Notes: generated by a model from the sequence alone, not told the origin. Shown: positions 7,990 through 61,276, counted from the stretch's first letter. The stretch: DNA of 61,276 nucleotides from Elusimicrobiota bacterium (GCA_026388075.1 JAPLKN010000145.1:1-61276), one strand, 5' to 3'. A program made the numbers and translations.

Positions 7990-8019
7990 AAGGAAGAGTT
8001 TATCAAGAAATTTGATGAA

Positions 8020-19609: not shown

Positions 19610-22600
19610 ATGAAAAGAAATCTTATTTTCATCCTAGTTTTTATTTTTCTGCTGAATAATTTTTCAGCGATAGATATTTTATTTTTTAATAATAGCACAA
19701 TAGTAACTAATATAATAAAGGCGCAGTCCCCGATATTGAGCGTGTTTTCAATGTCTGTCCTGCCGATGAAAGTGTTTGAAGCACTTGCCGATAAACTTAA
19801 TATTTCAAAGAAGCAAGGAAATAACCAGCCTGAAAATCAAACAGAGGAAAAGAGAAACTCCTCTTCGGACTATGCAATAATTTCTTCCGAAAAAGTATTT
19901 ATTAAAGTCCTCAAAACAAAAATTCCCGACAATTTAAGTGTCATTTTTAACGGTTTAAACGAGATGTACCGCGCTTTTACGATTTGTGCAAGAGGAAGCC
20001 CCCCGGGAAAGCAGGTTAATTTTTTTATTTTACTTTTATTGCTGTATTTAATCTTGCTATCCAGAAGTAATCTTCCAAATAGCAGTGTAAGGATGATTTT
20101 TGTCAAAAATATGTCCCGGCTTTTGAAAAAAAGCCGGGTTTTTTATTTATGGGCGGGCAGTATTTTGAAATTTAATTTTAAAAAGGCCGTTGCTGTATTC
20201 ACGGCGGCATGTTTTATGTTTTCTGTTGTTGGAGCTGATGTTTTGCGCGCGTCAACTGTTATAAGCGAAAGAAAAAAAGAAATATATGAAATAGAAAATT
20301 CCTTGGATAGCACAATAATTCCTGCATCTTTGGGAAGAGTAACTTCAGAAAAATGTTTTGAAAGCGATAGAGTGGTAATCAATATCCAGGATTTGCACTG
20401 CAACAGCGAAGTTCAAAGAAATATCAGCGGGATACTTAAGAATCTTGACGATAAATACGGCCTTCATAGAATCTTTGTTGAAGGAGCATCCGGGGAAGTG
20501 GATACATCATGGCTTTGCGGGCTTACGGACGCAAATTTCAAAAACAAAGCCATTGAAATATTGGTTAATCAGGGGAAATTGACCGGATCCGAATACTATT
20601 CGGTAATCAGCAATAAACCCAAGCTTCTTTATGGGCTTGAAAAAGAAGGCCCTTATAACGAAAATTTGAAAAGACTGAATAAAATAATTGATTGCCAGCC
20701 GATGTATGAAAAAATAATTAAAGAAATTCAGAAAGATTTGGATGAAATGAAGACAAATTATCTAAATCCCCAGCAGAAACGTCTTGAAAACATAGTGTCC
20801 AAATATCGGCAGGGAAAAATAGATTCCGGGAAATTTTACAAGTTAATTAATAAATATATTGATAAACTAAACAAAAACAAAGAAACATATGATATCGGCT
20901 CTATCAGTTTAAGTCAATATGAAAATATTAAGCTTTATCTGGATGCTTTAGAAATTGAGCGCGGCATAAATTACGGTGCCGTGTCTCAGGAACTACAGAA
21001 GTTTGTCCAAAATATAAAGCAAAAACTATCGTATTCAACTTACCGTGAAATTGCTGAAAAAACAAACAATTTTACAAAACTGGATGAAACATATACCTGC
21101 CTTTCTTACCTGTCCGAAAACAAAACATTTTCTGTAGAAAATGGGTCCCACAATCTCAGAGAATTTTTCAAGTATCTTAAAACAAGCAAAAAAATAAATC
21201 CTATAAGATTAATTAGAGAAGAAAACAATCTTATTTCCGAGATAAGAACCGGTTTTTCACAAAATATTACGGAGTATGAAATATCATTCCTTGCCGGAAC
21301 ATTTTGTTCGTTTGAAGACTATTTAAGAAATAAACTATCGTACGAAGAATATAAAAAATTCAAGGCAAATTTTGAAGAATTCAGGCTTCTTTGGCAAAAA
21401 TATACGGGTGGAAATCAGCTAAAAGAATTGGAAAAAGACTTTGAATTATTAAATGCTTTTTATAATCTTAACGCAGAAAGGAATGAATATTTTATTGAAG
21501 CCATATTCAAAAAGAAGGTTAAAGTTGAGGTTAAGGTTAAGGAACAGCAAGACAACAAAAATGGAATAATTCAGGAGACACTTCCTAGTCGACCTTTGGG
21601 CTCTTCGCAGAAAGAATCAGATTCAAAAAAAGTCAGCTCGCAACTCAAAAAAGCAAAAGAAATAACAGTCGTTATTACGGGAGGTTTTCATAGCGAAGGG
21701 CTTGAAGAATTATTGTCAGATAATAAAATATCGCACATTACAATCACTCCTTGCGTTATAAAAGAAATAAAAACTTGCGAAAAGATTTACAAAGAGATTG
21801 CCAAAGAGCAGTTTAAAAATATTTCTGCCCAAGCTATAGCATTGAAGCTTCTGTCCCAAATGTCTCCTGAAACTAAATTTTCCGAATTAGTAAATGTAAA
21901 AATAATAAAAGCTATTGAAGAGGGTCAAAAAGCATTTGAAAAGTTGATGAAAGGGAACGAAAACAATATTGAAATGATTCTTGAAAATATGCAGGTAATA
22001 TGGAACGCAAACAAAACTATTGCGGATAAAGAAGGTAAAATCAAAAGCGTTAAAAACCTAGGGATAAAGGACAGTGGATACCATTTTGCAATAGATTTCG
22101 GCACGGGAGAAACAGAATTTGCATATGTTCCGGGAGCTGTAAATCCTGTTCAATTGGTAATTGAATCAGCACAATTATCAAATAAAGCGGTTTCCGGAAA
22201 AGCAGATATACAGAAAATTTTGGAGCAAATGAAAGCAGGGCTTCAGGACAGAGAAATAAAATCTAAAAATGGAAAAATATTTAGACTAAAAATAAATGGA
22301 GATGATAAAATCGCGATTTTTATCTCGCTAATTGATGATAAAGGTCAGGAATCTTCCATAGTGTCACACGTAAGCTATACAGAAGATAATGAAATGAATA
22401 TAAGCCTAGTTTTGGATGAAGTTGTCTTTGACCATGAAGCGAACGATTTAACTGGACAGTGGCTTGGAGGCCAAATTTTAGAATTCTGCAGTAATTATGT
22501 TCCGGCCGGCACCAAATTCAGTTTGGAAGTTGTAAATACCGAAACCATTCAAAAACTCATTAGAGGATATAAAACAAAAAGCTTTGCAGATATAGCAGAA

Positions 22601-25600
22601 ATGACAAGCTTTTTCAAAGAACAAACGCCGATAGGAAAATTAATTTCGGGCAAATCCGGCCTCGGCGGCTTTGAGTTTGAGCAGAACTTCAAAATAATTA
22701 AAGATAAAAGCGAAATAAGCTCTTTTATTGATATGTTGGAAAAAGGATTACAAAAAAAAGAGGGATTTATTCTGCACGCCATAAAATTAGCTAGTGAAAA
22801 CGAAGTTAGCGATAAAGAAGAAAAAATTGCGCAGTTCAGAGTAGCACTGCGACAGAGATTTTTTAGTATGGTTTGGATAAAGGACAGAGATGCGAGTGGA
22901 AAAAAACTCAGTTATTACGAAAAAGAAAAAATGTTAAAGGATTTTGAAGACGGATTGACAGAGAAATATAAAAATATTGTTAATAATCCTTCATCTTATG
23001 ATAAGTGTTTTCAAGAAATGGTTGGAATCATAACGGCCTTTTATAAACTTCATTCAAGAGGATTCTTTTATCTTGATATTGATAAGCCGAAAGATATTGC
23101 AGATTTCCTTGAAAATAGAATTATCAAAGCAGAACCCCTATTTTCGATAAGTAGAATAAATAAAAGTGCAATGCAATTTAATGGGCTTGCGGGTTCCGGC
23201 GCCACAGCCGCGGTTTTAAAAATAATCTTAAAAGGGCATGAAGGACAAAAGCTGGTTGTGAAAACCATGTTCAATTATAAAGATGATAAAAATCAAAAAT
23301 ATTTCAAACGAGAAAGAAAAATATTGAAAAAGTTTCAAAATTTTCAGTGGGCAGTAAGATTGTATGACGATTTAACCGAAGAATTCTGCGTAGAAGGAGG
23401 GATTCTAAAAGGAATTGTAATGGAAGATATATCAGAAGGAATAGATCCGGAGCAATTCCCGGCAGGCGATTTTACAAATGAATATTTCAAGGAATTAATA
23501 GACGCATTATTGGCCATAATAAATTCCGGGCATAAGATTACGGAAGATTTTCAAAACGTTATATTAAACGGACATCCGAAAATCTATGATTTCGGCGCTT
23601 ATGGTGAAATCAGAAGCGAAAATCAAAGAAACGAAAATATTGAAGAGGCAAACAAGATAGTTCGTTTCCTAACTCGGAAAAATATTACAGAATATCTGCA
23701 ATCAACCCGAAATATTACCCTGACTAAAGAAGAGATTTCAATAATTGAAGAATTATTTATCAATGAGCCTCAAAAAATCACAATCAAAGAATTCTGTGAC
23801 AGATACATTTCTCAAAAAGAAGCAATGCAAAAAAAGCCCCAAGCTTTGGGTGAAAACATTTCCTCGGACGATCAGGAAACTTCAGGCAAAAAGGGTGGTG
23901 AAATTAGGCCCAAGGATCTGAAACGTGCGGTCGCTGTTACGTATGGTATAGGTGCCGGTATAGGGATTGCAAATCTTCTTATTCAACTGGCTTTGGGTCA
24001 AGTGTTCGGAGTCGCCGGGCCAAAATATTTAGTTCCTTTTGATGGTATTGATGAAGAGGATGTTAGGCCTTCAGTTCCGAAATTTAATTACTATACTCCT
24101 CAAGAGTTTATGGGGGTGCGTAGAAGATACCCCGGCGGCCGATGGGAAATAAGGATTAATCCGGCAGTGTATAAAGTGCTGATATCGCTCCCTGTATTCA
24201 TGCAAAGGGTCGTGCTTTCATATACGGGTATTGTGGGCCATGAGGCGTATCATTTAAACTTCAAAAATAGTGAAAAGATCAAGTACAATAGACATCAAGA
24301 AATACGTGCTTACGGTTTGGCTCAAGTTTTGCCTGCAAGTTCCGGAGTTGTAGTAAGTCTATTTTTGATTTATTGCTGCGGTATGGGGATCATAGGTTCG
24401 ATTATTGCAGGTGTTTTAACATCCTTTATTGTTGTAAATTTGATCAGCGAAATATACGGCAATCATGTGATTAAAAGGGAACAATTTGAAAGATTGTTTA
24501 CGCTCCCCGGCAATACAGGATTTGTTCTGCAAAATCAATGGAATGATGCAGCCGAGGCAGATGAGAAAAGGAAGGAACTTAAGGATCTGTTCGGCAAAAA
24601 TAGTAAGAAAATAGAAAAATACCTTTTTGAACGTCCAACCCCCGAAAATGCAGTTTCACATGTTCAGAAAGAATATCAGGCTATGTTTGCCCTAATTTTC
24701 GAACTTTTGCCGAAAAACTGTGCTTTTTATACGTATGATGATTTTGAAGACAATTCGTTCGGTTCAATTTCATCTTCCGATAATAGCATTTTCCTTCACA
24801 GGTCTATATCCGCTAACCAGGCGGCTCTCTGGAAGTATATGCTTGAATTTCTTGCAGAAAAAAATCTTTTGAAAATTACTCTTAAAAATCAGGTTCTCAT
24901 TATTGAAAGCAACGGGAAAACTATCGGAGAAATTAAGATATCTGATGAAGCGATCACATATACTAAGCATCAGGATTTTGCTGACTCAAAAGAAGATAGT
25001 TTGCCGTATCTTATCCATTTAATGTGTAGAGAGGTATTTGGTAAATACAGCGAAGATTTGAACTTATTTGAAAGTAAATATAAAGAAACACTTGAAAATT
25101 GTTCGCTTAATGAAGACCTGATATTGAATCCGTCGTTATCGCCGTATCCCGAGCTCTACAAGGAAACTAAGGAGATTTTTGAGGATCTGTGCTCAGCGGC
25201 AGGAATTGAGGGAGCAACCTTGTGGCTTCTGGATAACGAAGATATATCGGTGTTTGCCGTTCCGGGAATGAGAATTGCGGCCATTTCAGTAGGGACATTC
25301 AAGAAAATAAAACATCTGACAAAAGACGCCATCGCTTTCGCTCTCGCGCACGAAATACGCCATATTTCTCAAAAAGAACTTCTAAATATATCTCAGACAA
25401 AACATCGGATATCCCGGAAGGCCGCAAAAGAGACAGACGCGGATTATTTTGCGCTTTGCCTTATGAACAAGGCAAAATATAACGTGCTGGAAGCGACAAA
25501 ATTATTTGAAAGTTTAAAGGATGAAGAAGAATTAGATGATACTCTGAAGATGATATTAGAACTTCGGGATGAACATGGCAGTGTTGAAAAAAGAATCAAG

Positions 25601-28600
25601 CATCTAAGGGATTTGATTAACGATACTAATTGGGGAAACACGTCAGAAATAAAATATTTTTCCAAAAGCGCCGCTGACTCACTGGATGAGAAAACACGAC
25701 TCAATAAAATCATTAAGCTTGTTTCTGGAGTTCGCACGTTTAAGGAACTGAGCGACATACTTCTTCTCATTTCTACCGATTCAGGTCTTCAGGAATATGT
25801 GAATACTATTTTAGCGAGCGGGATTATGAATGTTTTCAAATCATTTGAACAAGATTTGCACTTAGAAAAGAGAATATCTGAGCATGACTTCAAGTTCAAA
25901 TTTACATTAACGGATGGGTTTACCCTCTTGTTGATTCTGTTTGGTGATATGAAGTGGCAAAGCATTTTTAAAAACAATAAATATTACGCATTGCTAAAAA
26001 CAATATTTGCTTCAAAAGGTTTCACGCGTATAAATATAGACTTTCAGACATTCATGAGTGAATATGAGCATACGTACGGCAAAATAATTTCGGATATCAC
26101 GATCAATATATTACTGAACAATATATGTCAGACCTGGCTTTATATTTTTGGAGAAAACAAACAAGCAATGGAAATGGCAAGGAAATATATTAAAAAGAGA
26201 ATCGCCAGATCTATGAGCCGGATAGAGGTGCAGCCGAAACAGCTTATAAAGTTCCCGCTGGCTAGTACCGCGGGAGCCATTTCACCGACAATTTTCCATA
26301 GTGATGACGCATACAAATGGTACCTTGATATGTGCATGGAAGAAATGCTGAAGAACAAACATTGGAACATCGCATATGTTACCGAGCTCATAAAACAATT
26401 GGACAATTTGAGCGAAACGGTCAAAGACGATTATTACACATTATATGGAAGTTTGCTGAAATTTTACGATAGAATAGTAAAAGTGCTGATAGAAAGCGGC
26501 GCATACAGCGATGAAGAACTCGCAAAACTGCTTTTTGATCATAGCTATCTCCTATACGCAGGTCACGAGTCCAATCCCTATGTAAATAGCAGAGCCTTCA
26601 AAGTCATATTCGATTTATACGGAAAGAATGGGCGGTATAAAGAACGCACTGAAGAGCTGTTGAAAAACATTTGGGATAAGTATTGCAGTTTCAGTATTTT
26701 ATGGATCATGGCAGAAAAGTATTACGAAGAGTTCAAAAAAGGCAATTATGATTATCTGCATTTCCTTAAATTGGATGGCAATGAGCTCCTATACATTTAT
26801 AAAACACTCGCAAAAAAACATAGAACGCGTCAGGAAAGGTACGAGATACTCGTTATATTAACTGATTATGCACAGAAGAAGAACATTGAGTTTATATATG
26901 ATTCATACATGACCATGCGCGAGTTTAGAAATGCCCTTCCGGAAACAGATGGGGAGCTTATGGCGTGTATAGAAGAATTAATTGCGCGGGCAAAGAATAC
27001 GTATCCCGGCATAGAAAAGGCTTTATCTTCTGTAGATCAGATCGGGAAGAAAGCGAAAGAAATTCTGATATGGATGCTGATGTTTGGATGCTATGATTTT
27101 ACTAGACTGAACCTGTCCATTGAAGAAAAAGAGGTTTTGCTGGAAGTTTTAAGAACCATCTATGACAAGAAAACAGAAAGCAAAAACGGCTCTGCTGACC
27201 TGGAAGTTCCAGAAAAAAAGCTCCAGGAGCTGATTCTTGGTGAGAAGGACGGCTATTACCGTGAGTCAAACGAGCAGCGATTGCTCAGAGAACAGACCGA
27301 TGTCGGGCTTGACCTGTTTCTGCGGAAAATAGGATATTCCGATAACGACCAGGTGCTTACAAACAAGGTGCAATTTCTAAAAACCGTGGCAGATATAAGA
27401 ATGGGGGTATCCCGTTCTGCAAAGTTCAAAGGAAAAGTGAGCAATGAAAATAATTCAACTGGGGGGAGTGTAGCCGACTATAAAATTACAGAAGCATATG
27501 AAAATTATTTCAGGAAGTTGTTTGATTTGCCGTTTTACATAGAGCGTCCGGATGCATCACAAAATCGGAAACAATATTTCAAGGATGATGTGTTCGATTT
27601 CATATTCAAAACAGAAATGAGTTTTGAGGACTGTCTGGGCTATGTTAAAAGGTATCTTCCTCCGAGCGTAATCAGAAATCTTGTGCTCCTTGCACTGCTG
27701 CTTAAAGAGGCTGAGAAAATCTACCCGGATGAAAACGTATTTAATAATTTCTTAACCAGTACGCGAGTGCTTAATGATAAGGCAATAAAAGAAAAAGTGG
27801 GCATGGTGCTTCCGTTATTGGTGCCTGACAGCACATTGCTTGCAAATAATACGGTATTAATAGAACATCTTGTTGAGAAAGAGCGGCGAGGGAAGAAAAG
27901 TGGATTGGGCGGAGCAGACTCGTTTTCTGAGGAAATTAAAAATAAACGGGAAAGGGGGACTGCATCTGTCGCGGGTGTTCGAGAACGATGCAAAGTGTTC
28001 ATTAAGACAATTTTTATAATTCTTACGAATTTCGTAAGGTATGTTATTTTGAAAGTTGACAGAAAATTATTTCCAAAGAGGTACTTAAAACAAGTTAGAA
28101 ATATATTTGATCAGAGGAATGTCAGCGCAAAGTTTTTGGGGGAGAAGCGGCAGAATATCATTGCCAATGAAATAACTCCTTCGCTTTTTAAAGAAGAATT
28201 ACTGCAAAAAAGAGGGTTGGACAAATTCATTATAAAAGCTTTTGCTGAAGAGCATAACATATCTCCGGACGGCATAGCAAACCTTTCACCAAAAATGCTC
28301 GCACAGTTTATCAACACGTATATAGTAGAAGAAAATCTTGCCACCAAAGAAATAATTGATCTTTCCGATATAAAGAACAGGAGCGAGCGAAATAGAGCCC
28401 AAGAGCTGTTGGATAAAATAAAAGTGAAAGTAGAAAAACCTGTTTCCTCAAATACACAGAATCCGCGACGATATATTGACAACATTGATCAGAAGATCAA
28501 ATATGATCAATATATAGAACAGGTGAGAGAATTCAACGTTATTGTCCTAAAATCAATGTATCCTAAATCTATTCATATTTCATATCAAAAAGATGTGGTG

Positions 28601-31600
28601 GACACCGTTGTTGGTAATTACTTTATGGAGAATATTCTTCATGCGATGTATCAAATAATGTCTCCGAAAAGCATTCAGCGGCTTGCGACCGCGTATTTTG
28701 AGCGTAAAAGAAGGGAAAAGGGAATACAAAAAATTGATGCGCTCTATTTTGATTATAATCACCCAAATAAATTCGCACAGCCGGACGCGGTCCTGCCGGA
28801 CGTCTTTTTTGGGGAAGAGATTATGGGCAACATTCAATCAGGTGTTGAATTTCTTAATAAAATTAGCTTTGTATGCTCTAAATTTGTAAATTCCCAGCCC
28901 GCGCGGGATAAATACCTTGAAATTATTTTTGAGCAGGAGTTAGCAAACATCAAAGTGAAAAGCGGCGAGGCCAGAGATAAGGACGGAATTCTTCAAGTTT
29001 GTGGTATGTTGGCGGCGGTGCGAGAGCAGTCTAAAATGTTTTATAATTCCTACTTTTCAGACCGGTATCTTTCCGAAGCGCTTTCAATAGATGTCGGGCT
29101 AAGTGAACTGAGCGCAGCCCTGGAAAATGAACAATTTACCCTGATGAAGGAAATAGGCATCATAGAACAATATTTCCCGGAGAAGAGCTATATTCGCGAT
29201 GATATTTTAAAAAGTCTTTGGGAGAGCGTCCATGATTTTGAAGAAGCAAAAAAACTTCAGGCTATGATGTACGGAGACAGGCGCAACATGCTGGGTGATG
29301 TGAAAACTGAGAGAAAGGTTTTTTATGAAGAAAAATTTAAAATACTTTTTGAGGAACTTCCTCGAATGGATAAAAATGATTTTATGCTTTGGATTATAGG
29401 GATCAAAGAGAAACCCGTATTCATGAGACAATGGGAAGAAATGCTCGGCATTTCGTTTGACCAATTAAAGAATATATATCAGATGCCTCAGGGCTCGGCA
29501 AGATATAAGTTTGTAGGAGAAAGCGCCAGGAACTTGTTCATTGAAGAAATGTTTTTGGGAAGTCAAGGTATTCTAAAGGATAGTAAATTGTTTGAATATT
29601 TCATGAGCCAAATAGTTGAATACATTCTTAATAAGACTGATGTTGGAAAAACAGTTTCAAAGTCAGTTTTGCGCAAGATATCCAAGGCGGTGATAAAGGA
29701 GACCGATAATGATAAGAAGCTAGAGATCGTAAAAGCGCTTTCTCTGAATCTTTCGTCGGTATTCCAGGAAGGGCAGGGAAATGAATTTGATGTTATTGTA
29801 AAACTCATGGAGTCGCTAGGGATAATAGGAATCAAAATTGGCCAGATGATAGGATTTTCTAATGAGATAGATGTCTCGCCAGAGCTAAAGAATAAGTTCA
29901 AAAAATTGGGTTCATCGGCAGTCCCTTTGACCAAGCAGGTGGCATTTGAATCGTTAATAAACCTTGGCATGCAGGACAAAATCAAAAGCATCGATGAATC
30001 CCTAGGTTCGGCTTCAATAAAAATTGTGTTCGGCGCAACGCTTAATGACGGCAGAAAGGTAGCGCTCAAGATACTACGGCCAAAAGTTGCGCACGATCTA
30101 AAAAAAGACCTGAAAATGTTTAAGAAAGTGATTGCCAGGCTTAGGAAACAAGGGGTAAAGATTCCAAATGGTTTTGAAGATAGAGCCTCCTCCAATATAG
30201 AAGAAGACGCGGATTTTGAGAACGAAATCAAAAATTCCGCTCTGCTTGAGAGTCAGCTTAAAGAGATTAGTCAGGAACATACCTTTAAATTATCTTGTTC
30301 CGGGGCTCAGGTGCAATTTGCGCTTCCTGTGCTGTACGAAGGGTCAAATAATAAAATTTTGTTTTGCGAAAAAATATCAGGCCGAGATCTGAAAGACGAA
30401 GACGGGCTGATAAGCGATAAAATTCTTTCTCGGGAAGAGCTAAGCGAGCTTAAGGGCGTTATATTTGATTTTCTTATGATTCAGATGTTTGAAAAAGGGC
30501 TCTATCTGGGAGATCCTCATGGAGGCAATTTCAGAATTGTGAGAGAAGATGGTGTCATCAAGGTCTACCTAACGGATGTCGGGGCAATGGAAAAACTTGA
30601 AAAAGATGCTGAAAAATACAGGCGATTCCTCATCGGACTTGGCTGCATGAAAAGAAACATCAAAACGGCAGGGGAGTTTATTGATGAAGCCCTATTTTTT
30701 ACCAGGGCAGGCCATCTGATTGAAAACAAAGGCGAAAAAGAACTGTTGAAGATAATGTTGCAAAAAATGCCCAAGGACGTTGCACCCTACGATACAACTG
30801 ATATCGATTCGGCTGTAAAAAAGTTTGAAATTGATTTCATAAAAGATGTCATTAGCAAGAAAGTGCACAGGACATCAAAAAAAGAAAATAGTGTTAAACC
30901 CGATGCTAAAGAATTTTTAGCTGAAGACGAAGAAGCCGAAGAGGCCTTGGATGAGCCGGAATTGGCTCAAGGCCTTAAGTCCCTCGGCGAAAAACCGGAA
31001 GTGGTTGTTGCCAAGGCGGCGGCGAATGGGGTAGAGGTTGTTCTCGGCGGGGTCGTGATAAAAGTTGCCCAGTGGATTGCAGACAAGATAGTTGCTCTCG
31101 GCATCAAAAACCTTGAAGTTCCTAAAGATTTTTCAGATTATGATGGCTGGCTAAAACTAATCCAGGATAACGCAGTCACTCTTTCAGGGGTTATACAAGG
31201 CGCACATGAAAACATGTATGAAGACGAAAAGCATCTGGTTACCGGCGAAAAACTTAAACTGTATAAGACGAAAATAGAAAAGATAAAACAACTTCTTGAG
31301 GAAAACGGTTATCCCGGTTTTGATGTATTAGTAAGCGAGAATCCGAATTTAATTCATCCTGAAGGAGATGCCTATTCTTTAGCCACGTTCAATACTGACA
31401 AAAAGAAGATTATGGTTCATACGGCTTTTCTTGATCGTGCCCCGCCAGAAATGATCGAGGAATTAGTGAAACACGAAACAGGTGAAGACAATGCATTAAA
31501 AGGAAACGATCCAGGATTTGAAAAATACATATCGGATTTATCTGTTGAATCCCAGCAACCCATTGAAACCTACCGAAATCAAGGAATTTATCACAAATAC

Positions 31601-37600: not shown

Positions 37601-40600
37601 AAAGAAACTATCAACTGGGCAGGTTTTATTACAAAAGGCCTATATGGATTAGATAAATTGCTGAGAGAGAAGAAATATTCGCAGAAAAAAGTAGAAAAGA
37701 TCGCCAAGAGATTATTTGCTGGCTTTTTAGGATACTATAAAAATGAATCATCCGAGCCGTCAGAGATAAAAGGAAGGCAAATAAAAAATATCAGAAAATA
37801 CAATATTCCGCTGAATGAAATATTTAAGTTAATGGACAGCGGCAAGGATCTTTCCGGTTTAAAAACGCTGAAACAAAACCTAACAGCATCCAATAAGAAC
37901 AAACCGCAAGCAAAAGCTCTGAGCGAAGAGCTTCCCTTATTGATTGCGAATGCGGTTTTAGGGTGCTTTTTGCCGGATTTTGTACCGCGGATTTGTGAAG
38001 CGATTGGGATTGAAGCTGATTCCCTTTACGCAAGTAAACCGATGGATTTGGCAAGTAAAATAGCAGATAATTCAGCATTGCTTGCTGATGCGCTTTTAGC
38101 TCTTTTCAAACGAGGTGCTATAAATAAAACGTTCACCAAAGAGGAAGAGCAATATATTAATGAGTATAAAACTGAAGCGGCTTTCAAGCTCTTTGGCATA
38201 AGGGACGGATCAAAAATAAAACTTGTTACAAGCAATAATCCTGCTCTTATTCAAGGAAAAGCTTGGGCTCATTCTACTATAGAGGTAGATGAAGTAAACG
38301 GCAACGCAACTATATATGTTCATCAGGCATTTTGGGAAGCATTAAAAAATAAAGCGCCGCCCGCGCAGCTTAATCAGCTTGTTCAAAAAGTATTATTGAA
38401 AATGCTTTTTGGTCACGAGCTGGACGAGGATTCAGCATTAAAAGGTGAAGACCCCGATTTTGAACAATTTATTGAACCGATTCTTAAAGAAAAAAACCTG
38501 CCGATAACGGAAGAAAACAAATCAAAATACCGCACTATTAAAAACTATCATGAATTTCTTAGATCAAAAAAGCCTGAAAAAGCAGTAATTTTAGATTTTG
38601 GGAAAAAAGCCGCCAAGGAGTATTACGACGGATTATATTTGAAAATGTTAAACATAGTCTGTCGGCTATTTATCAAAGATAAAGAATTGTCATCTGTAGA
38701 TATTATGAGCGCGGTCAAAGAAATTGAAAATACAGTGCTTCAATATGGTTTTTATAACGTAGGAATGCTAGAACACTTTGGAGAAAGAATCGGTTGGTCA
38801 GAAGCCTTGTTAAAAACATTTTTGGACGGATATGTTGAATTGGCAATGCATTCTAAAGCGGATACTTATTTTCAGAAAAGTGCACAAGAATCAGTTCAAA
38901 AATTTTTCACACAACTCTTGAAATATTGTGCTATTAAATCGGCTGAGATGTTTGAAGTAAGAAAAGGGGAAATGTGGAATGTATATAGAAATCGGTTCGC
39001 TTTAAATAAAATTACGAAAATAACAGAAAAAGGAGATGAATTACTAATATTATTTAAGCGGATAGAAAGATTCCTAAAAAATGATGAAAGACAAAATCGG
39101 TGTGAAACTCTTCAAATAAATAAGGATTTTGTTTTTGAATTAGCGCGTGTTCTTATGCCAGATTCTTTAAGAGAACTTAGCGATGTAAAAGATAGCGATC
39201 ACTGCGATTTGATATCGTATTTATTATCGGGATTATTAACCGAATTGCCTCTTAGTGAAGAAAAATATGAATTAGTCTGCTTGGATTTAAAAAATCGTAC
39301 GGCAACAGGGGTTTTGCATAACAATAGGCTACTAGTTTTAGATTACGCGGCAGAACGTGTTTTTGAATTAAGCCTTAATGACTATACGGAAGAAAAAGAG
39401 CCTGAAGGAAAAAAATCGGTAATAAAACGCTATATGATCAGCAAAGTCCCGATCGAAGACAATTTTGTACAAATGAATTATAAAGAGATAAAAATTTATC
39501 CTTTTAGTACGGCAAAAAGTATTTATTTAGTTGAGCTTGGTGCTTTGTGCTTGAAGAAGGCAGAAATAACACATGAAAAAGTGTATTACGATCAGGCAGG
39601 CAAATATTTTGATGAGGCGATAGAAACAGATCCGAATTATCCTAACGCCTGGGAAAATAAGGGGCTTCTATTTGAGAAACTGGATAAATTGGATGAAGCG
39701 GCTGGCTGCTATAAGAAAGTGATAGAACTAGATCCTCCTAATAATAGGACGACAAGGGATAGGCTGACTAATGAAATAAAGAAAGCAGAAGAAAAGCAGG
39801 AAATTGAGCTTGAAGTGTTTGAAGGAATAATGAAACTGCAGGGATATGACAAAGAAGTATCGGATTTAAAACTCAGGGCGCAAAAACTGAAAATCAGGGT
39901 TTCCGATGATATATACATTGCAACTGCAATAGGAAATCGCGAGCTGATTGATGATTTATTAAAGAGAGAAAAGGATTTTGAGGCGGATAAGCAAGCATAT
40001 AAATCAAAAAAAGGGCAAGAATTGGCAGTTGCTTATCTAAAGAGTTCGGGAGAAATACTTTCAGTAAGAAGGTTTAAACCAGAAAATGAGGAAGGTATTT
40101 TAAACCTTATTCATACGGAAACAAAGGAAGATTGGTCAGGCTTAGGGCTAAATTCTAGTTTATTGTATATCTTGTTTTTAATGTTTTGCAGGGATGATAA
40201 CTTTAAAAAAGCTGTAACAACCTTTCTTACAGACAGTGATTCTTATAAAAGCGAGAAAGAACAACCAATTCCTGGAACGGGGTATGACTTCTATTACAGG
40301 CTAAAGAAATATGCGGGAAAAGAGGCCGTTAATTTAAGGGATCTCTATAAAGAGGGCAGATTTTCTGGCCGTTATGCTGAAATTTATTTTGACAAACTGA
40401 ATTTAGATAGCATTAAAGAGCATTTGGCAAAGCACTTGAAAGAGTTAACTCATGAAAAAACAAGGCAGATTCAGTTTCAAATACTTGAAAAAAGATTACG
40501 AGCTGATATGTGGGTAGGCAATGTTGCAAGTGATTTCGGCAAACGCATTACAGAATTTATTGAAAAACTCAATCAAGATTTAAATATCTTAAATAAATCC

Positions 40601-43600
40601 AGCGATAAGGAATCTTTAAATAAGGCAAAAGAGATTGAGGAAATTAAAGAAAAATCAGAAAGTTTAAATAAAAAAGCAGAGCATTACTCTGAGCCTGAAG
40701 AATTTATTCTTTTCAGTAATGATGAAAGAATTCAAGAAGCTATGCGCAATGCTGCAGCAATATATATGCCCAAAGATGCAAGCTCCTATACAGAGAAATA
40801 TTTGATTAATATAAGAAATGATAAAGGAAAAATAGTCTCAGCTATTTTATACAGACTTGATGAAGAAACCGATAAGAAAGCAAAGCAGACTCATTTATGC
40901 AGAATTTCAGTATCGTATGACTGGGATAATTTAGGGAACAATAAATTAAACAAATCAACAATAAGCGATGCCTTTATTAAAGTTCCGACAATTGAACTGG
41001 GGAAGATTTTCTTTGAAATATTGGAATCTATTGCCGGCGAGGGATCAGCCAAAGTAGTAAAAGAGAATAAATTAGAAAAGAATATAGAAATAAATCTAAA
41101 TAAGCTTAATCTTGTCAATTTAGATGATTTTTCAATCATTGATAAACTGATTGAAATTGTTAATGAACTAGATGCTGATGCAATGTTGATTGATCATATA
41201 GATAAGATAAATAAGATTATTTATTTAGAAGTCAAAACTAATAAAGAATATACGATTCTTAAAATTCCCTATGCCGAATCCGTGGCTAATAAAAAGCTTA
41301 CTGCCAAGGGGACCTATCAGGCCTACGGTGAACTCTACCCAGATAAAATCATTCGGGATCAAAACTTTGAAAATTGGTGGGAAAATCCGGCAAATGCAAA
41401 AGCGAAACGCGACTGCGAAATTAACTTTGCTCCAGTCAAAGAATATAAGGAGTCTACCAAAGATCCGATCGGATTTATTGTATCGCATGTTGACCTATCA
41501 GTAAAGGATAATCTTGGAGAAGATAATCTAAGAATACTTGCACTTCAGGGCCTTACCTTCAAAACCTATAAAAAATTCGCAGCCCGGACACCTGAAAAAA
41601 CGATTGAATTATTGTCTAAAACCTTCAATAACGACAAGAGAGCAATAAATACTTTCCTTAAAACATTTTATCAACGCGCTCGGGTTGTTGACCAAATGAT
41701 GCGGTTTGAAGAAATAGGGGAAAACATTGGGAAACCCGGACAAGTTAGGGAATACGGCCTATTCCGCGCAGCAATTAACGGTGTTATTTCGTTGATTATA
41801 CGCTTAATGACTAGACTAAAAAAGAACGTTGTTTTGGCAGAAGAAGGAATAGAGCAGACAAGGATCAAGGCTGGGAACATTCTTTCCCACTGGTGGAATA
41901 ACTTTATTAATAAAGCTCCGTTGCTTCAAAACGAAATAAAAGCAAAGAGAATCAAAACTATCGTTTTCAATAAAGCAGAGCTAATTAAACTAAACATCAG
42001 GATACCGGAAATTGAAGAATATAAGAAAGACAGAGAAAAAGCATTATGGGACAGATATGAAATTGAAAAAATTAAATGGGAAAAAGGCGAAACTCCGATC
42101 CCGCTTGCGCCAGGAATAGGGAATTTTTTGAAAGTTTTACAAGAAAAAAATAAACCTTGCATAATAACCAGTGGGGAAGAATTGGATAAACTGAAAACAA
42201 AAATCTCGGATATGAAATTGAAAAAATATTTCAAAAATGAAAACATTCATGGCTTCCCTGAAACTAAAGCCGAGGTGTTGAAAAATATAGCTGAACCCGG
42301 GACAAAGTTGATCATGTTTGGCGATGCGCCTTCGAATATGAAAGCGGCAAAGGATGCGGGGGCTGTAGCTGTAGGAATAGCGCATAACGAGAAAGGTGCG
42401 GCAAGGTTAAAAGAAGCCGGTGCTGATATAATTGTTCTAGGCGGCTTTATAGAGTTGACGGAGATTCTGGAAGGAAAAAAGCCATTGGAAAATAACGGGA
42501 ACGTCATAGTCATAAACAAAATATATGATCTTAACGCGGACAAATACGTGTTTGATTGGGATGGGACGATTTCTGATGCATTTTGGTTTTGGCCGGAAGT
42601 AGAAGGGGAACAGATTGCGGGTTATATTTGTTCTAAAGATGAAAATAACAAAGCTATTTGGGAAAAGGCAAAGTTATGGGCAGCTGAGTTTGGGCGAACA
42701 TCCTTTTGGCAAAGTCCAACACCGCTGACTCTGGACAATAAATACGAGATACTAATAACTGGTTTAAAAGAATTGCAGTCAAATGTGTTGAGCCTTAAAA
42801 TAAAAGACTTTTTTAAGAAATATCTTGAAAATTTCAACATTAAAAATATCAAATATTTGTCCTTTTTCTCTCATTTCCAAATTTTTAGGATAGTCTGTTC
42901 TATATCCAGATTATTGAAGTACGGAAAGATTGATGTCGGAGATGCCAGTGATTTCATATTATTACTTCACAATTTAATGATGATTGCTAAGCAGGATATG
43001 GCCAAAATCGTGAATTATATCATAAGAAATTTATCTAGAATAAATGAACAAGTAGGCTTAAAACCATATATGATTTCTCTTCTGGATAATTTCGGCAAGA
43101 GTAAATCCGTTTTATATAAATTAGAAGATCTTCCTTTGAAATTCTTTTTATCGTTAAGGAAACAAAAGATTGTACTTAAAGATATTAAATCAATAAATGT
43201 TATTTTGACTGCTAAATTAGAAGGGCGGGGTGATATTCCCAATGCTTTTGATTTAGCATCAGGTATAACGGAAATGTTCCCTGATAAGGATATCACTCTC
43301 ACTTTCTTTGAAGAAAACACATATAAATTATTTGCAAAAGATTTCCAGATGAAAATTCCAAATCTTAGAATCGCACACGGTCTAGATACGGACAAAGCAA
43401 AGGATTGCGATTTGATTATATTTATTACCATTCCTTGGACTTACATACACGGAATTAATCCCCTTGAAACAAATCTGAAAGGGAGAAAAGCGACTTTTTA
43501 TATTCCATGTTTTGACTGGTGGCACATGAGCAACGGAGCATTTATTGACAAAAGAGATAATCAAATCACTCTGCATATGTTTCTCAAATCAGGATTTTCG

Positions 43601-46600
43601 CCGGGAACGAACGGGTTGATATTTGATTCAATTAATATTTCTGCTACAAAACAGCAGCTCGTTGATAAATTATATCGCAAATTACACAGAACAAAGAGAA
43701 TACAAGATATTAAAAGTATGATCATAAACAGTAAATGGATGTTCGCTTATTCAAGTTCAAGCAGGGAGATTTATTACAAGATTTTATCTCTGGCTAAATC
43801 TGTTAAAGACGAACAAATTTCTATATTTATGCCATTAGATTATCAAAAGGATAAAGAGATTATCTCCTTTATAAAAAATAGTGAAGACATGTTGTATTTT
43901 AGTAAGAATATAAAAGATAGCGCCAAAGTTAAAGACATAAGCAAAATAAAATTAATCATAATAAATACAAAAACTTTCGATCTGCATCGTAAGATTATTC
44001 TGGCATTATTGGGAAATAGCGATTTCCCGGTATTTGTATCCGGCAACGTAAGCCTTTCCGAGGCTATTAAGCGCAAAATTCCTTTTATTTACATGAAAAC
44101 AAATTTCCATACGAAAGTTTCTGCTGAAGCTATGAAATATTCTTTTTCGGATATATTGCCTATTGATAAAAGCAAAGTATTAAAAAATTCTTTTGAGATT
44201 ATAGACAACTATCTTGAAGGCAATACAAATACTATACCTGCGGAATTGTTTGTAAGAAAAGACTGGCAGATTTATCTAAAGGAATGGGAAGAACTTGTTT
44301 ATGAAAGGATGAATTTTTTCAAAACTATTCAAGGCATTGTGAATGGTAAAAAGTTAATTGAAATAGACGGATATTTTGAAGACCCGTCATTTTTTAAATT
44401 TGTTGAGTCGGTTAAGGAAGTAAGAGTAGTTTACAGATATAGGTATCTAACAGAATCTTGCGGAATAGCAATATATGATGCGCTTCATCAATTAAAAGAA
44501 GAAGGTTATGACCTTAAAGATGCCTTAAGTTGTATTGACAATCCGGAGCTTAGCAAATATGCGATAGAAATATTGAGCGGGGCAGAAATAGAAAATGAGG
44601 TTGGCGACATTTTGATCAAAATGCTCAGACAATATGTGCATAAATGGAAAGTTGACAGAAAAATGCTGCCGGTTATTAACTCTGTTATTAGTATATTTTC
44701 ATTAGCTACACCTTTTATGCGATCAGATGCTGAGATAATAAAATTGTTAAGGCATCCCAATAATGAAATTAAAAAAGAAGCTTTTAAATACTTAAAAAGT
44801 ATTGGGGATGATGATAGTTTAAAAATAATTCAATCATTGTCAGAAAAGAAAGTATCAAATGAGAAAGCAAGAATAGCAAAAGAAGTTAATGATTATTTTG
44901 AAGGAATATTAAGCGAGTATGATAAGGAACAAATATATTCCATAGATGATTTTATTGAAAATGTTAATCCTCAGCTTCTCATCAGATGGGAGCCTAATCA
45001 AACCAAAAAAGTTACGGAAATATTAGAAAACGAATTAGAAACTATAAATAATAGTGATAAGATAAATAAAATTATCAATTTCAAAGTAAGCAGCGGTTCT
45101 CTTAGAAAGAATAATTGGATGCTTGGTTCCGGTATTGATGAAATTGAAATTGAGTATTTAGGAGAAAAAAATGTTTTGGAAATGAAAATTAAAAGTATGT
45201 TAAATAGATTTTGTGTTTTAATTAAGGAAGAAGGATGGGTATGGAGCAATATTAGGTGGATTCAGAAAAATGCTGATGAGGCGGTTCTTAACGAATTTAG
45301 GAATGATAGAAAAGTTCTGACAATTCAAAAGAAGGAAGATAAAGATAGTAAATGGCTTACCAAGAAAATATTTTATAGAAACAAACTTCTTGATGAATGG
45401 AACAGCTTTGGGAAATCTGTAAAAGAGCTGGTCAAAAAACTTCACATAGCTATGGCGCTAAAAAACTTTAATAACAAACAAATAAAAGTTAATCTAAACC
45501 GGAAGGAAATAGTTTTATTACATTATTTGGAAAGAAAGGGTTTAATATCAATTATCAAAAACAGGATTTTTATTAAATGGTTTTCAAACAGAAGAGGAAC
45601 GAATATTTTATTTAATTATCTAATATTTAATGCCGAAAAGATAAATAAAACCATTCCTGAAGCGCCTATTGATAAAGAAGTTCTTGAGCAGGAAGGAAAA
45701 ATTAACCCTGATAAACCGCAGCTTACCCGGGAAGATGTTTATATTAAATATGGTCAAAAGCACGGCCTAAATCCGGGCTGGTACCTAAGCAGGCCAACTT
45801 TTCCCGAAGAAGAAAAAGTCTGGATTCAGCACAGGCGCGCGGCCGAGCGGATGGCGGGGTGGTATGAATTGCCGCAATTTTTTACCGATCCGATTGGATT
45901 TTTGTTTAGCCACTATATAACCACCAAGTACGAGCGCGCTTGGAACTGGGTATCGTTTAGTATGGTAATTGTTGCCTGGCTTGCAAGTGTAATGGTGCCG
46001 TGGCTTGGGGTGGCAGTATTTTTAGGAAATGTCATTGTTAGAAGTATCGGAAGCTACATAAAATTAAGAAGATACGAAGCTGAGAAGCTGGGAAAATGGG
46101 AAGCTGAGCAAGAAAAAACTAAGTACGAAATAAGAAAAGCAGGCGTAAAAGAGATAACCCAAAAATCAATAATAATAGGGGCAATTGTCGGGACAGTTGC
46201 AGGAACAATTTCTGCATTAGTTATAGGCACTATAACATCCTTCCTCATACCATTCACATTAGTATTCATTGCAGTAGCCGCATACAACTTCATTAAACTT
46301 CACCAGAAATACAATAAAGAAAAAGGCACAGGCACAAAATGGGAAGCGCCGCTGACGGAAGAACAGTGCAAAACACTGGCGGAAAAGGATTATGAACAAA
46401 ATGAGAATTTTAAGGACATGGTTAGACAAGGAAAAGTTGACCGGGGGGCGGTCATCCTTTTTCTGGCGATCAAACACTATATCCGGGGCAAAAAGGTTAC
46501 GGCGAAAGACGGCAGAGAATATACTCTGGTAGCCAAGATGGAACATCCGTGGTCGATTGAAATCTATCTCAAAAACAATGAAGAAACCGAATCCAATAAG

Positions 46601-60248: not shown

Positions 60249-61276
60249 GTTGTTAATGCTCACTAATTAGGTAACTCTTTTGGTAGAATATAACCAAAGG
60301 AGGCTGTCCAATGAAATACCAAGACATAATAATAGTAAAGCGATGGATACCAATACTAAAAGAGTACGAACGAACAAAAGCAAAGATTGATCCGCGCCCC
60401 TTTAGATATGTTAAGGACCTGTGTTCAGCACATAATATTTCAAAGAAAGAACTAACGCGCTATTATCACAAATGGGTCAATGGCGGAAAACTGGATGAAT
60501 CATTGTTGCCCAAGAAGCGGGGTGCGCGCCCCGGTTCGCGAAGAACCCCAAAAGAGATAGAACGATCTATTGTAAAAGCATATAGGCACTTTGGTTCAAA
60601 CAGATACGAGCTTGTTCTTTTATTTAAACCATATTACTTAGACAAAACGCCCTCACCGGCAACTATGGACCGGATTAAAGCGCGTTATCCGCTTAACGAG
60701 CAGGATAAGAAGGTCATTAAGCGCTACGAACGTCAGTCCCCTGGAGAATTGGCTCATATAGACCTTAGTAAAGTTCCCCATGATATCCGTTGTTCTTTTA
60801 AAGTAAAAGAGCTTTATATTGCTGCTGTTAATGACGACTGTACGCGTTTGACCTATGCTGAAATTATTAAAGACAAAAAAGCATCAACCTTAACTTATTT
60901 CTTGGCACGGTCATTGTCATGGTTTAAACAAATATACAATTTCGAATTTGAATCTATTCTGTCAGATAACGGTGCAGAGTTCAAAGGTTCGCTTGCTAGA
61001 GAACATCCCTTTGAAACCTTTTGCAAGGAATTGGGTATAAAACATATTTGTACTAGGCCTTACAGACCGCAAACCAACGGCAAAATTGAGGCTTTCTGGC
61101 GTATCGTTCAAAAGGAGTTCTTTTACCCGAATTCTTTTGCTTCAGAACAAGATATTATCCTTAATCTTGGAAATTTCCTGTTCGAGTTTAACCATTTACG
61201 CAAACATGGCGGTTTGAATTATATAACACCATTTGATAAACTACAAAAAGTTACCGAATTATTGAGCTAGTACAAC
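60249..61276 (+). mobile_element. IS481-family insertion sequence; the right end is at or beyond the window edge
   Basis: Imperfect terminal inverted repeats: gttgttaatgctcactaattaggtaac (60249-60275) versus the reverse complement of 61250-61276 (gttgtactagctcaataattcggtaac), 21/27 matches. The right IR overlaps the transposase stop, as is usual for IS481. The true outer ends may extend a few nt further out. Confidence 0.75.
60311..61270 (+). CDS. IS481-family DDE transposase (rve integrase core)
   Basis: N-terminal HTH region. The DDE triad context is AHIDLSKV / ILSDNGAEF / RPQTNGKIEAFWR. GGAGG at 60299-60303 lies 7 nt before the ATG. Confidence 0.9.
   Translation: MKYQDIIIVKRWIPILKEYERTKAKIDPRPFRYVKDLCSAHNISKKELTRYYHKWVNGGKLDESLLPKKRGARPGSRRTPKEIERSIVKAYRHFGSNRYELVLLFKPYYLDKTPSPATMDRIKARYPLNEQDKKVIKRYERQSPGELAHIDLSKVPHDIRCSFKVKELYIAAVNDDCTRLTYAEIIKDKKASTLTYFLARSLSWFKQIYNFEFESILSDNGAEFKGSLAREHPFETFCKELGIKHICTRPYRPQTNGKIEAFWRIVQKEFFYPNSFASEQDIILNLGNFLFEFNHLRKHGGLNYITPFDKLQKVTELLS

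Follow-up and report, generated by a model that had tools for sequence, protein, structure and literature searches.

Giant multi-enzyme membrane proteins have been described only recently, mainly from Omnitrophota, and nobody knows what their role is. As far as the accessible portions of the work on these 'Archaeovorin' or multi-enzyme giants extend (West-Roberts et al. 2023, 10.1101/2023.11.21.568195; 2026 preprint, 10.64898/2026.06.07.730766), they are very long single open reading frames (ORFs) with many transmembrane (TM) segments and mostly unannotated sequence, and their N-terminal regions generally lack identifiable domains (10.1101/2023.11.21.568195). Elusimicrobiota are enriched in proteins of more than 5,000 amino acids (aa), which are uncharacterised (PMC11573180). 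Here we analyse a complete contig of 61,276 nucleotides (nt) from an Elusimicrobiota metagenome-assembled genome (MAG; GCA_026388075.1, JAPLKN010000145.1:1-61276), called the window throughout, and within it ORF C, an uninterrupted frame that runs from an ATG at 19610 to 47170 on the + strand and encodes 9186 aa. The Archaeovorin-type giants of Omnitrophota are its closest described kind.

The frame architecture outlined above for Archaeovorins is found again in the Elusimicrobiota giants treated below. In the accessible text the Archaeovorin repertoire comprises HAD_2, PPDK_N, NUDIX, GGDEF, radical SAM, AAA_5, PGM, PGI, peptidase, TPR and HEAT domains, which matches that of the Elusimicrobiota family, and an SLT-type gene or domain lies nearby in both. 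ORF C itself combines at least eight TM-like segments with peptidase, HAD, kinase, TIM and TPR domains. It differs in coming from Elusimicrobiota, in its length (9,186 aa, against at least 10,000 aa for the class called 'very large' and at least 30,000 aa for 'giant' in the accessible text) and in having no C39 or S8 peptidase near its N-terminus, as described there for Omnitrophota. Within their accessible portions, neither Omnitrophota paper mentions an esterase, a conserved N-terminal head, a leader gene or a hairpin, and the 2026 preprint (10.64898/2026.06.07.730766), to the same extent, makes no mention of Elusimicrobiota.

Two classes of toxin also invite comparison. MARTX toxins are, like ORF C, single huge polypeptides with diverse catalytic modules, and a TIKI-fold module, in ORF C a putative one, occurs in both. 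The polymorphic toxins of the Rhs and CDI types likewise have a conserved N-terminus, variable C-terminal content and multiple paralogues per genome. An initial annotation of the window, generated by a model from the sequence alone, had likened ORF C to such toxins and proposed a membrane-anchored delivery scaffold or polyprotein for effector-like enzymes.

Here we describe an N-terminal head that defines a family of giants found, where the taxon is known, almost entirely in Elusimicrobiota and followed by a different string of enzymes from lineage to lineage. We also weigh a reading of ORF C that we consider probable, if only somewhat so: that of a giant polytopic membrane protein forming a membrane-tethered multi-enzyme array with an exported TIKI-type head.

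A constant head and variable cargo

A search with the first 5,000 aa of ORF C retrieved 78 giant homologues of 2,762-7,673 aa, whose named sources are almost all Elusimicrobia or Endomicrobia MAGs. By local BLAST, the only part common to ORF C and these 78 proteins is C aa 188-770, within the following feature:

20165..21934, + strand, aa 186-775: family-defining N-terminal head (NTM), with a signal-peptide-like segment (aa 186-215), an alpha/beta core and a helical insertion

Nearly all homologues carry the head at their very N-terminus, behind a signal-peptide-like segment of the form MKxKK-hydrophobic-AxA. Beyond this segment the head is about 560 aa long, and a helical insertion of about 290 aa splits its small strand-helix core. 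Profile A1, an alignment of 17 diverse copies, has the invariant pattern Q-D-L-H, Q, E-G, E, N, N..R, G-G-F-H, P; the invariant residues in ORF C are D261-x-H263, E291, E328, N352, N621, R624 and G691-G-F-H694.

Representatives of at least 8,942 clusters (50% identity) matched the head profile, 4,824 with an E-value of 1e-30 or lower, and the matching clusters are mostly giants and, where the taxon is known, almost all from Elusimicrobiota; a genome can have up to 10 or more paralogues. In GTDB species genomes the profile marked 456 stretches; of the 78 best loci, 77 are from Elusimicrobiota, a single MAG contributes 10, and the habitats include rumen, termite gut, peat and groundwater. The sole non-Elusimicrobiota locus among these best 78, L003 (JBDRNO010000048.1; 39% head identity), lies on a contig binned as Bacteroidota, which reflects either mis-binning or horizontal transfer. 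One protein labelled Omnitrophota, P0070, carries the head, and the Elusimicrobiota head family and the Omnitrophota giants may be linked. We found no description of a head-bearing Elusimicrobiota giant family in the literature. Judged by these profile matches, the head defines a very large, undescribed family that is almost entirely confined to Elusimicrobiota where the taxon is known.

What follows the head differs from protein to protein. Precomputed Pfam assignments for the homologues include phosphofructokinase, PPDK, PEP-utilising, phosphoglucomutase and glucose-6-phosphate isomerase domains, adenylate and CMP kinases, NUDIX, HD, GGDEF and radical SAM domains, as well as MoxR-type AAA, WD40, HEAT, and M48 together with ABC1. 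Head identity was set against downstream sharing, pair by pair, for the 132 family proteins that reach 2,500 aa or more: pairs with heads less than 45% identical had a median of 0% of their downstream sequence in common, and those with heads at least 45% identical a median of 32%. Near heads usually retain their cargo, and stable subfamilies therefore exist; P0056 and P0059, with heads 83% identical, have only 3% of their downstream sequence in common. As compared here, the family has a constant head followed, in each lineage, by a different enzyme string that is broken up by helical spacers, TM hairpins and degenerate zincin modules.

A constant N-terminus, variable cargo and many paralogues per genome follow the logic of polymorphic toxins, and the 83%-identical heads of P0056 and P0059 with their unrelated cargo fit that logic. 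ORF C could on this account be a multi-effector toxin or delivery polyprotein that is exported and whose cassettes, freed by embedded proteases, act on a host or prey cell. We judge this explanation unlikely. The cargo is not hyper-variable, near heads mostly retaining it, and the family lives in very different habitats, from rumen and termite gut to peat and groundwater. Rhs and CDI toxins, moreover, differ in carrying one short toxin tip, against many kilobases of metabolic enzymes here that are mostly stable among close relatives.

Likeness of the head to TIKI hydrolases

Ere, ChaN and Tiki belong to the TIKI superfamily, whose members are recognised by a signature of two His and two Glu with a conserved basic residue (PMC6254334). 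In RRSP the signature consists of E3900, H3902, E3930, H4030 and R4001, and the His-Glu pair falls at 85/113 in Bcr135 and at 3902/3930 in RRSP (PMC6254334). The head likewise has an acid-x-His, a Glu 28 residues on, a basic residue and a GxxH: Asp-x-His, Glu +28, Arg and Gly-x-x-His are invariant in 17/17 diverse members, and the spacing of 28 between His263 and Glu291 equals that of Bcr135 and RRSP. A further possible likeness is the modelled core, a small beta-sheet flanked by helices. The AlphaFold2 (AF2) model of the head (predicted local distance difference test, pLDDT, 80; predicted template modelling score, pTM, 0.75) has five short strands plus helices, and a Foldseek comparison with the PDB placed EreC at ranks 1 and 4 (6xcs, 6xcq) and Bcr135 at rank 29 (3b55), at E-values that are not significant.

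The head differs from TIKI proteins in its first acid, which is Asp and not Glu, in the insertion of about 290 aa that splits its core, in the thousands of cargo residues fused to it and in having no detectable sequence-profile similarity to them. We read it as a highly diverged TIKI/Ere-type hydrolase domain, a reading that the signature supports, that the modelled fold only hints at and that profiles do not support. The ChaN/Tiki-like domain placed at about 20370 by the initial annotation therefore stands as a motif pattern and, weakly, as a fold, and finds no backing in any sequence profile.

An orthologue at the same locus

The closest relative found, P0158 (7085 aa), is encoded in the Elusimicrobiota single-amplified genome (SAG) AM-326-M04 (JBHPNE010000012.1, locus L079). 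Its alignment with ORF C begins at residue 1 and extends to about residue 850, with 39% identity, and a 2,550-aa block of ORF C (aa 1469-4019) matches P0158 aa 3629-6152 at 44.5%. In a local BLAST against 215 family proteins, from which the C-terminal relatives of ORF C were taken, the C-terminal membrane module matched P0158 aa 6679-6906 at 34%. The HExxH, HEIRH..E.DxDYF and ABC1 Lys/DPHGxN/DxG motifs are all kept in P0158, and at 44% overall identity such conservation of zincin and ABC1 motifs argues for function. P0158 lacks the kinase-like region and the TIM-HAD-HAD string of ORF C; its head is followed by about 2,800 residues of other sequence.

Gene order in L079 (giant-rpmH-rnpA-yidD-yidC-jag-SLT/LysM-giant) is that of the window, and the two genomes share 59-63% identity in YidC, Jag and SLT. 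In L079 the conserved cluster (5029-9754) has one additional gene, of the GIY-YIG type. Family-wide synteny was considered and rejected, as yidC and jag lie beside a giant only in L068 and L079; in L068 they adjoin a family member in divergent orientation.

Since P0158 aligns from residue 1 and shares the locus, both the gene and its ATG at 19610 are taken as real. A later start at TTG 20165, which corresponds to the N-terminus of the homologues, was rejected on the ground that the 185 codons upstream of it are conserved from residue 1 in P0158, and a start after the hairpin described below was also ruled out, P0158 having no start codon there.

ORF C comes from a MAG contig with an integrase gene at its end, and its third HAD domain, HExGE modules and kinase-like domain are degenerate, features that would suit an assembly artefact, a pseudogene or a non-functional accretion of domain relics. 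Such an origin is highly improbable: the frame stays open for 27.5 kb at about 35% GC (33-41%), which makes chance openness impossible; a single-cell genome obtained independently has an orthologue at this locus that retains the catalytic motifs at 40-45% identity; and the family has thousands of members. By these comparisons ORF C is a genuine gene, and the initial annotation was right to describe one 9186-aa frame with many enzyme modules.

About 720 aa of the nearby ORF E (aa 411-1127) match, at 33% identity, a stretch inside P0158 (L079 16199-18370) that belongs to the roughly 2,800 residues behind its head. Material that forms a separate gene here thus lies inside the giant in the SAG, by module exchange or by gene fission or fusion, which shows that modules move between neighbouring giant genes.

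Enzyme modules of the cargo

Domains were sought with Pfam on two offset sets of 920-aa tiles (E<=0.01) and with NCBIfam on one set (E<=0.1); scores below are given against the Pfam gathering threshold (GA) where one applies. Behind the head the following features were found, all on the + strand:

23189..23632, +, aa 1194-1341: kinase-like domain (Pfam Pkinase, 25.9 bits, E=7.8e-6, below GA 31.7)
23927..24457, +: membrane-embedded zincin module (TM aa 1440-1469, HEAYH, hydrophobic pair aa 1573-1612)
25316..25612, +: M48-like metalloprotease domain (Pfam Peptidase_M48, 33 bits, above GA 20.3, aa 1939-2001)
25727..29749, +: stretch of about 1,340 aa without recognised domain, part of the 2,550-aa block conserved with P0158
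29777..30655, +: ABC1/UbiB-type atypical kinase (Pfam ABC1 at aa 3454-3682, 91 bits, above the cut-off of 22.9)
30887..31699, +, aa 3760-4030: HExGE copy 1 (jackhmmer, alignment, AF2)
31799..32458, +, aa 4064-4283: xylose-isomerase-like TIM barrel, AP_endonuc_2 (Pfam, 46.6 bits, above GA 31.1)
32705..34279, +, aa 4366-4549 and 4694-4890: two tandem HAD-IA cassettes (Pfam HAD_2, 89 and 83 bits)
34742..35395, +, aa 5045-5262: HExGE copy 2 (HEPGE at aa 5199)
36047..36199, +: HEIGE element, earlier called 'degenerate zincin' (HEIGE at aa 5497, nt 36098, then EYFAD)
36635..38629, +, aa 5676-5947 and 6126-6340: HExGE copies 3 and 4 (motif degenerate; HELDE)
39587..39742, +, aa 6660-6711: TPR repeats (Pfam TPR_1, 41.5 bits)
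41996..42568, +: third HAD-like domain (Pfam Hydrolase at aa 7463-7584, 33.8 bits, profile positions 67-191 only), then an isolated HAD motif I
43190..44130, +: region earlier called EarP-like (aa 7860-8197 searched, no match)
45710..46360, +, aa 8701-8917: C-terminal membrane module of about four TM helices (hydropathy)

The ABC1 domain is complete in its KxGQ, Lys3486, DPHGGN and DVG elements, which are conserved in P0158; its identity as a UbiB orthologue was rejected, with 73 bits in NCBIfam UbiB against an equivalog cut-off of 488. The M48-like domain has HEIRH at nt 25349 (aa 1914) and ETDADYF at aa 1941, both conserved in P0158, and the membrane-embedded zincin has HEAYH at nt 24239 (aa 1544) with a Glu downstream, for which P0158 has HEASH and a Glu; modules of the latter type occur also in ORF D (aa 665-866, HELLH), P0005 and P0062. 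The kinase-like domain has a G-loop (GSGATAAV), a Lys in VVKT and a DFG, and neither it nor the TIM barrel found a relative in a PDB sequence search.

The two HAD-IA cassettes score 103 and 108 bits with NCBIfam TIGR02253, and each together with a tail of about 100 aa forms one unit of a tandem duplication (32705-34550; aa 4360-4640 and 4688-4981) whose copies are 54% identical over 294 aa. All four motifs are present in the second (HAD2), whose motif I is DVDGT. The third HAD-like domain (HAD3) comprises motifs II-IV only, and an isolated motif I, DWDGT (aa 7649, nt 42554), lies behind it. The C-terminal membrane module recurs in ORF B (aa 211-329), P0109 and P0112. By fold class the modules of ORF C amount to about seven zincins, three or four HADs, two kinase folds, one TIM barrel and one TIKI-like domain; glycosyltransferase, methyltransferase and NUDIX domains, present in paralogues, were not found in ORF C.

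Most of what the initial annotation had listed here is borne out. The count of at least ten enzyme-like modules rises to about 14 with the recurrent HExGE modules included, and only the phrase 'unrelated chemistry' goes too far, as the modules fall into about six fold classes. The M48-like HEIRH...E..AD scores above GA with its motif at nt 25349, profiles recover the ABC1/UbiB kinase, the TIM barrel, the two HADs and the TPR where they had been placed, and HEAYH, HEIGE and DWDGT lie exactly at nt 24239, 36098 and 42554. The 'degenerate zincin' is HEIGE..EYFAD, M48-like with His replaced by Glu; the roughly 4 kb described as helical and unknown (25727..29749) gave zero Pfam or NCBIfam matches; and the four C-terminal TM segments are present as hydrophobic helices. 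The kinase-like fold with DFG was detected, though with a Pfam score below GA, and the HAD-like domains at 41950 and 42554 survive as a partial HAD (33.8 bits) and the isolated DWDGT, the nucleophile of HAD3 being lost. Two assignments found no support: searches of Pfam at E<=0.01, of NCBIfam at E<=0.1 and of PDB sequences at E<=10 gave no match for aa 7860-8197, where the EarP-like glycosyltransferase had been placed, and HEAT reached 17 bits, below GA.

Recurrent pseudo-zincin modules

Self-comparison with jackhmmer revealed a recurrent module of about 250 aa, present in four to five copies in ORF C, once in ORF D (aa 210-447, 58-62% identical to copy 1) and twice in ORF E. Its conserved elements are LGE..VA.AA, S.NP.L..PEGDAYSL, IYVH.AF, HE.GE and YH.YL. 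Hydrophobic peaks at aa 3799 and 6108 had been candidates for TM helices and were rejected as such; they lie in the LGE..VA.AA element and are modelled as soluble.

The AF2 model of copy 1 (pLDDT 76) found selecase as its top Foldseek match (4qhi/4qhh, probability 0.96-0.97, target TM-score 0.50-0.56), followed by HtpX (3cqb), projannalysin (4jix) and BepA (6ait), at E-values that are not significant (0.27 and above). Minigluzincins (selecase, projannalysin) and the M48 proteins HtpX and BepA are thus its best fold matches. The module keeps the His-Glu of their HExxH helix and differs in having Glu in place of the second His or in having lost the motif; elsewhere ORF C also has an M48 domain whose motif is complete. 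A homologue search with the module returned nothing, not even ORF D, and is hence a weak null. On alignment and model, the module looks like a minigluzincin/M48-type fold whose second zinc-binding His has become Glu, and it may serve as a spacer with a structural or binding role instead of acting as a protease.

These modules bear on the possibility that ORF C is a self-processing polyprotein serving its producer, in which zincins, the TIKI-like head or both would cut the chain into membrane or envelope enzymes. The two intact HExxH + Glu motifs (HEAYH and HEIRH), both conserved in P0158, the complete hydrolase signature of the head and the position of zincin-like modules between enzyme cassettes all suit this idea, which West-Roberts et al., in the accessible part of their text, also raise for the N-terminal peptidases of Omnitrophota giants. 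We nevertheless hold it doubtful: neither cleavage sites nor repeated linker motifs were identified, the modules between cassettes have lost the second zinc ligand, and the head is predicted to lie across the membrane from most of the chain.

Membrane association and proposed mechanism

A hydropathy scan, the source of all TM-like segments given for ORF C, marked hydrophobic segments at aa 6-24, 138-156, 194-212, 1440-1469, 1573-1612, 8778-8810 and 8854-8897, with a weaker one at aa 2796-2814. In most family members the N-terminus has a hydrophobic segment, and TM clusters are numerous, one often lying right behind the head. In Tiki and PrgY a signal peptide is followed by an extracytoplasmic domain and this in turn by a TM segment. 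Both the positive-inside rule and the likeness of the N-termini to signal peptides predict a head outside the cytoplasmic membrane; the cytoplasmic face is the more fitting place for the cargo, because most of it has ATP- or phosphate-handling chemistry.

In the array reading put forward in the introduction, the head would be exported and stay fixed to the inner membrane on its outer side, acting as a hydrolase (a peptidase or an esterase), and TM clusters would hold the long chain at the membrane. The ABC1 kinase, the TIM barrel of sugar-phosphate type and the HAD phosphatases would then form a co-localised, membrane-tethered enzyme array on the cytoplasmic face, and the intact zincins might trim or release parts of the chain. 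Expression is probably gated, since a leader gene and a terminator-like hairpin, both fused into the frame of ORF C, normally precede the giant. The topology, the enzyme activities and their substrates, and the scaffold and gating roles of ORF C are what we infer from these features. Catalytic residues are intact by sequence in ABC1, M48, the HEAYH zincin and HAD2.

Several observations weigh against this reading. The Foldseek matches of the head are not significant (E>=0.08, TM-score <0.2), the low TM-scores arising because the 290-aa helical insertion dominates the model; Pfam gave no link of the head to TraB/PrgY/GumN, ChaN or Ere in 17 members at E<=10, where only scattered chance matches appeared; and PDB profile searches with the whole module and with the core only returned nothing. 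There is no hydrophobic segment between aa 213 and 1440, and the flanks of TM 1440-1469 favour an N-in orientation, which is at odds with export of the head unless the scan overlooked a crossing. ORF C has no SecA (SecA_DEAD) match in Pfam, which the accessible text gives as typical of Archaeovorins. Finally, the catalytic residues that the initial annotation proposed to check are not canonical in part of the cargo, so that this part may be structural: the catalytic loop of the kinase-like domain (EDFQN) is atypical, the motif I of the first HAD (HAD1), DMHGT, has its general acid/base Asp changed to His, the nucleophile Asp of HAD3 is absent (VFNKAE), and the HExGE modules are altered as described.

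The same features were weighed for a toxin. TIKI-fold domains occur as MARTX effectors, for example RRSP (PMC6254334), and ORF C combines a signal-peptide-like N-terminus of the family type with several protease-like modules, near an SLT/LysM gene and a leucine-rich-repeat (LRR) surface protein; the authors of the Omnitrophota giant work favour predation in its accessible portions. The Pfam tiles (E<=0.01) contain none of the hallmarks, namely RTX glycine-rich repeats and C80 cysteine protease of MARTX or RHS/YD repeats, haemagglutinin repeats and pre-toxin domains of Rhs and CDI, and the 61-kb window has no type I-VI secretion gene, acyltransferase gene or immunity-like gene, the gene downstream of ORF C being ORF D, a mosaic relative. 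In further difference from MARTX, the cargo is of metabolic, housekeeping type and needs ATP or S-adenosylmethionine, and the many internal TM clusters favour retention in the producer's membrane. The initial annotation's placement of ORF C among MARTX or polymorphic toxins is therefore not upheld, nothing in the analysis shows delivery into a host or prey cell, and its polyprotein variant is possible given the several protease-like modules; a membrane-associated chain of enzyme domains of stand-alone type, which it had also described, is supported by the hydrophobic clusters together with the profiles. The membrane-tethered array with an exported TIKI-type head remains the reading that we prefer.

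Leader protein and hairpin

The part of ORF C upstream of the head consists of two features:

19610..20113, +, aa 1-168: fused leader part, hydrophobic at its N-terminus and with a second TM further on (LLLLLYLILLSRSNLP)
20115..20148, +: strong terminator-like hairpin with U-tract, a 10-bp stem with six G-C pairs, inside the frame

The leader is homologous to a small two-TM protein of 155-205 aa without Pfam match, which jackhmmer placed, as an ORF of 160-205 aa, just upstream of the giant in 40/71 related loci. This upstream ORF is usually separate, being in a different frame or ended by a stop codon, and a leader profile search of a large database returned 72 stand-alone hypothetical proteins of 155-200 aa. 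Fusion in frame was seen in ORF C, P0158, P0201, P0105, L020 and L065. From these homologues, the first 170 or so aa of ORF C are a fused copy of a normally separate upstream gene and not part of the head.

The hairpin lies between the leader part and the family signal peptide. Among fused genes with DNA at hand, it recurs in 3/3 besides ORF C, with stem sequences that differ yet stay complementary: a hairpin with U-tract was found at the same place in L080 and L081 by a strict scan and in L079 by RNAfold only. Unfused loci have one in 38/71 cases within a 150-nt interval (-400..-250 nt from the QDLH codon), where 1.5 would be expected from the hairpin density in the same loci. No Rfam family matches the hairpin region. 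Its recurrence looks like that of a conserved gate between a small partner gene and a costly giant gene, and it may be an attenuator controlling read-through into the latter. Termination at the hairpin inside a fused ORF would yield a non-stop transcript.

Taken together, leader, hairpin and TIKI-like head might form a launch cassette that gates, inserts into the membrane and possibly processes interchangeable cargo chains; we offer this as a tentative idea to which we give a rather low probability.

Neighbouring genes

All large ORFs of the window are on the + strand, and ORF C is accompanied by:

229-7989, +: ORF A, 2,586 aa, BspA/EndoS-type LRR protein
8020-13341, +: ORF B, 1,773 aa
13720-19281, +: rpmH, rnpA, yidD, yidC, jag and an SLT/LysM lytic transglycosylase gene, between B and C
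47429-50401, +: ORF D, 990 aa, downstream of C
50514-60227, +: ORF E, 3,237 aa, without significant Pfam domain
60311-61270, +: ORF F, rve-family integrase, at the very end of the contig and just past the run of giant genes

The SLT/LysM gene lies directly upstream of ORF C, and the rpmH-rnpA-yidD-yidC-jag group is a cluster of origin-proximal type (NCBI: YidC, MCX5782608.1; Jag, MCX5782609.1). ORF D, named 'MFS transporter' by NCBI (MCX5782612.1), has zero Pfam matches and is a mosaic of ORF C modules: a HELGE pseudo-zincin that shares 58-62% identity with C aa 3790-4019, and a TM-HELLH-TM module that resembles C aa 1412-1617. The transporter annotation is probably wrong. The two modules of ORF E are of the HEIGE type. 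ORF B has two copies of a TM module (YDKF..Y.LF...PLP..WQ...YA.LKRKV.IFFAP...) related to C aa 8701-8813, in the C-terminal membrane module, and to modules inside P0158. ORF A aa 338-710 resemble internal regions of the head-bearing giants P0024 and P0029 (27-28% identity), a further sign of modules common to giant genes.

Significance

Three elements of the locus are small enough to be expressed, mutated and mapped: the compact head, about 560 aa long and with a catalytic signature that can be tested, the conserved partner gene and the conserved, regulatory-looking hairpin. The head profile is in addition a means of gathering thousands of such proteins from metagenomes and of studying how cassettes are swapped behind a constant N-terminus. 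If the launch cassette were real, it would be a modular system, so far unrecognised, with thousands of uses in Elusimicrobiota and possibly also in Omnitrophota, and would open a first way into the question of how giant multi-enzyme proteins are produced and deployed by bacteria.

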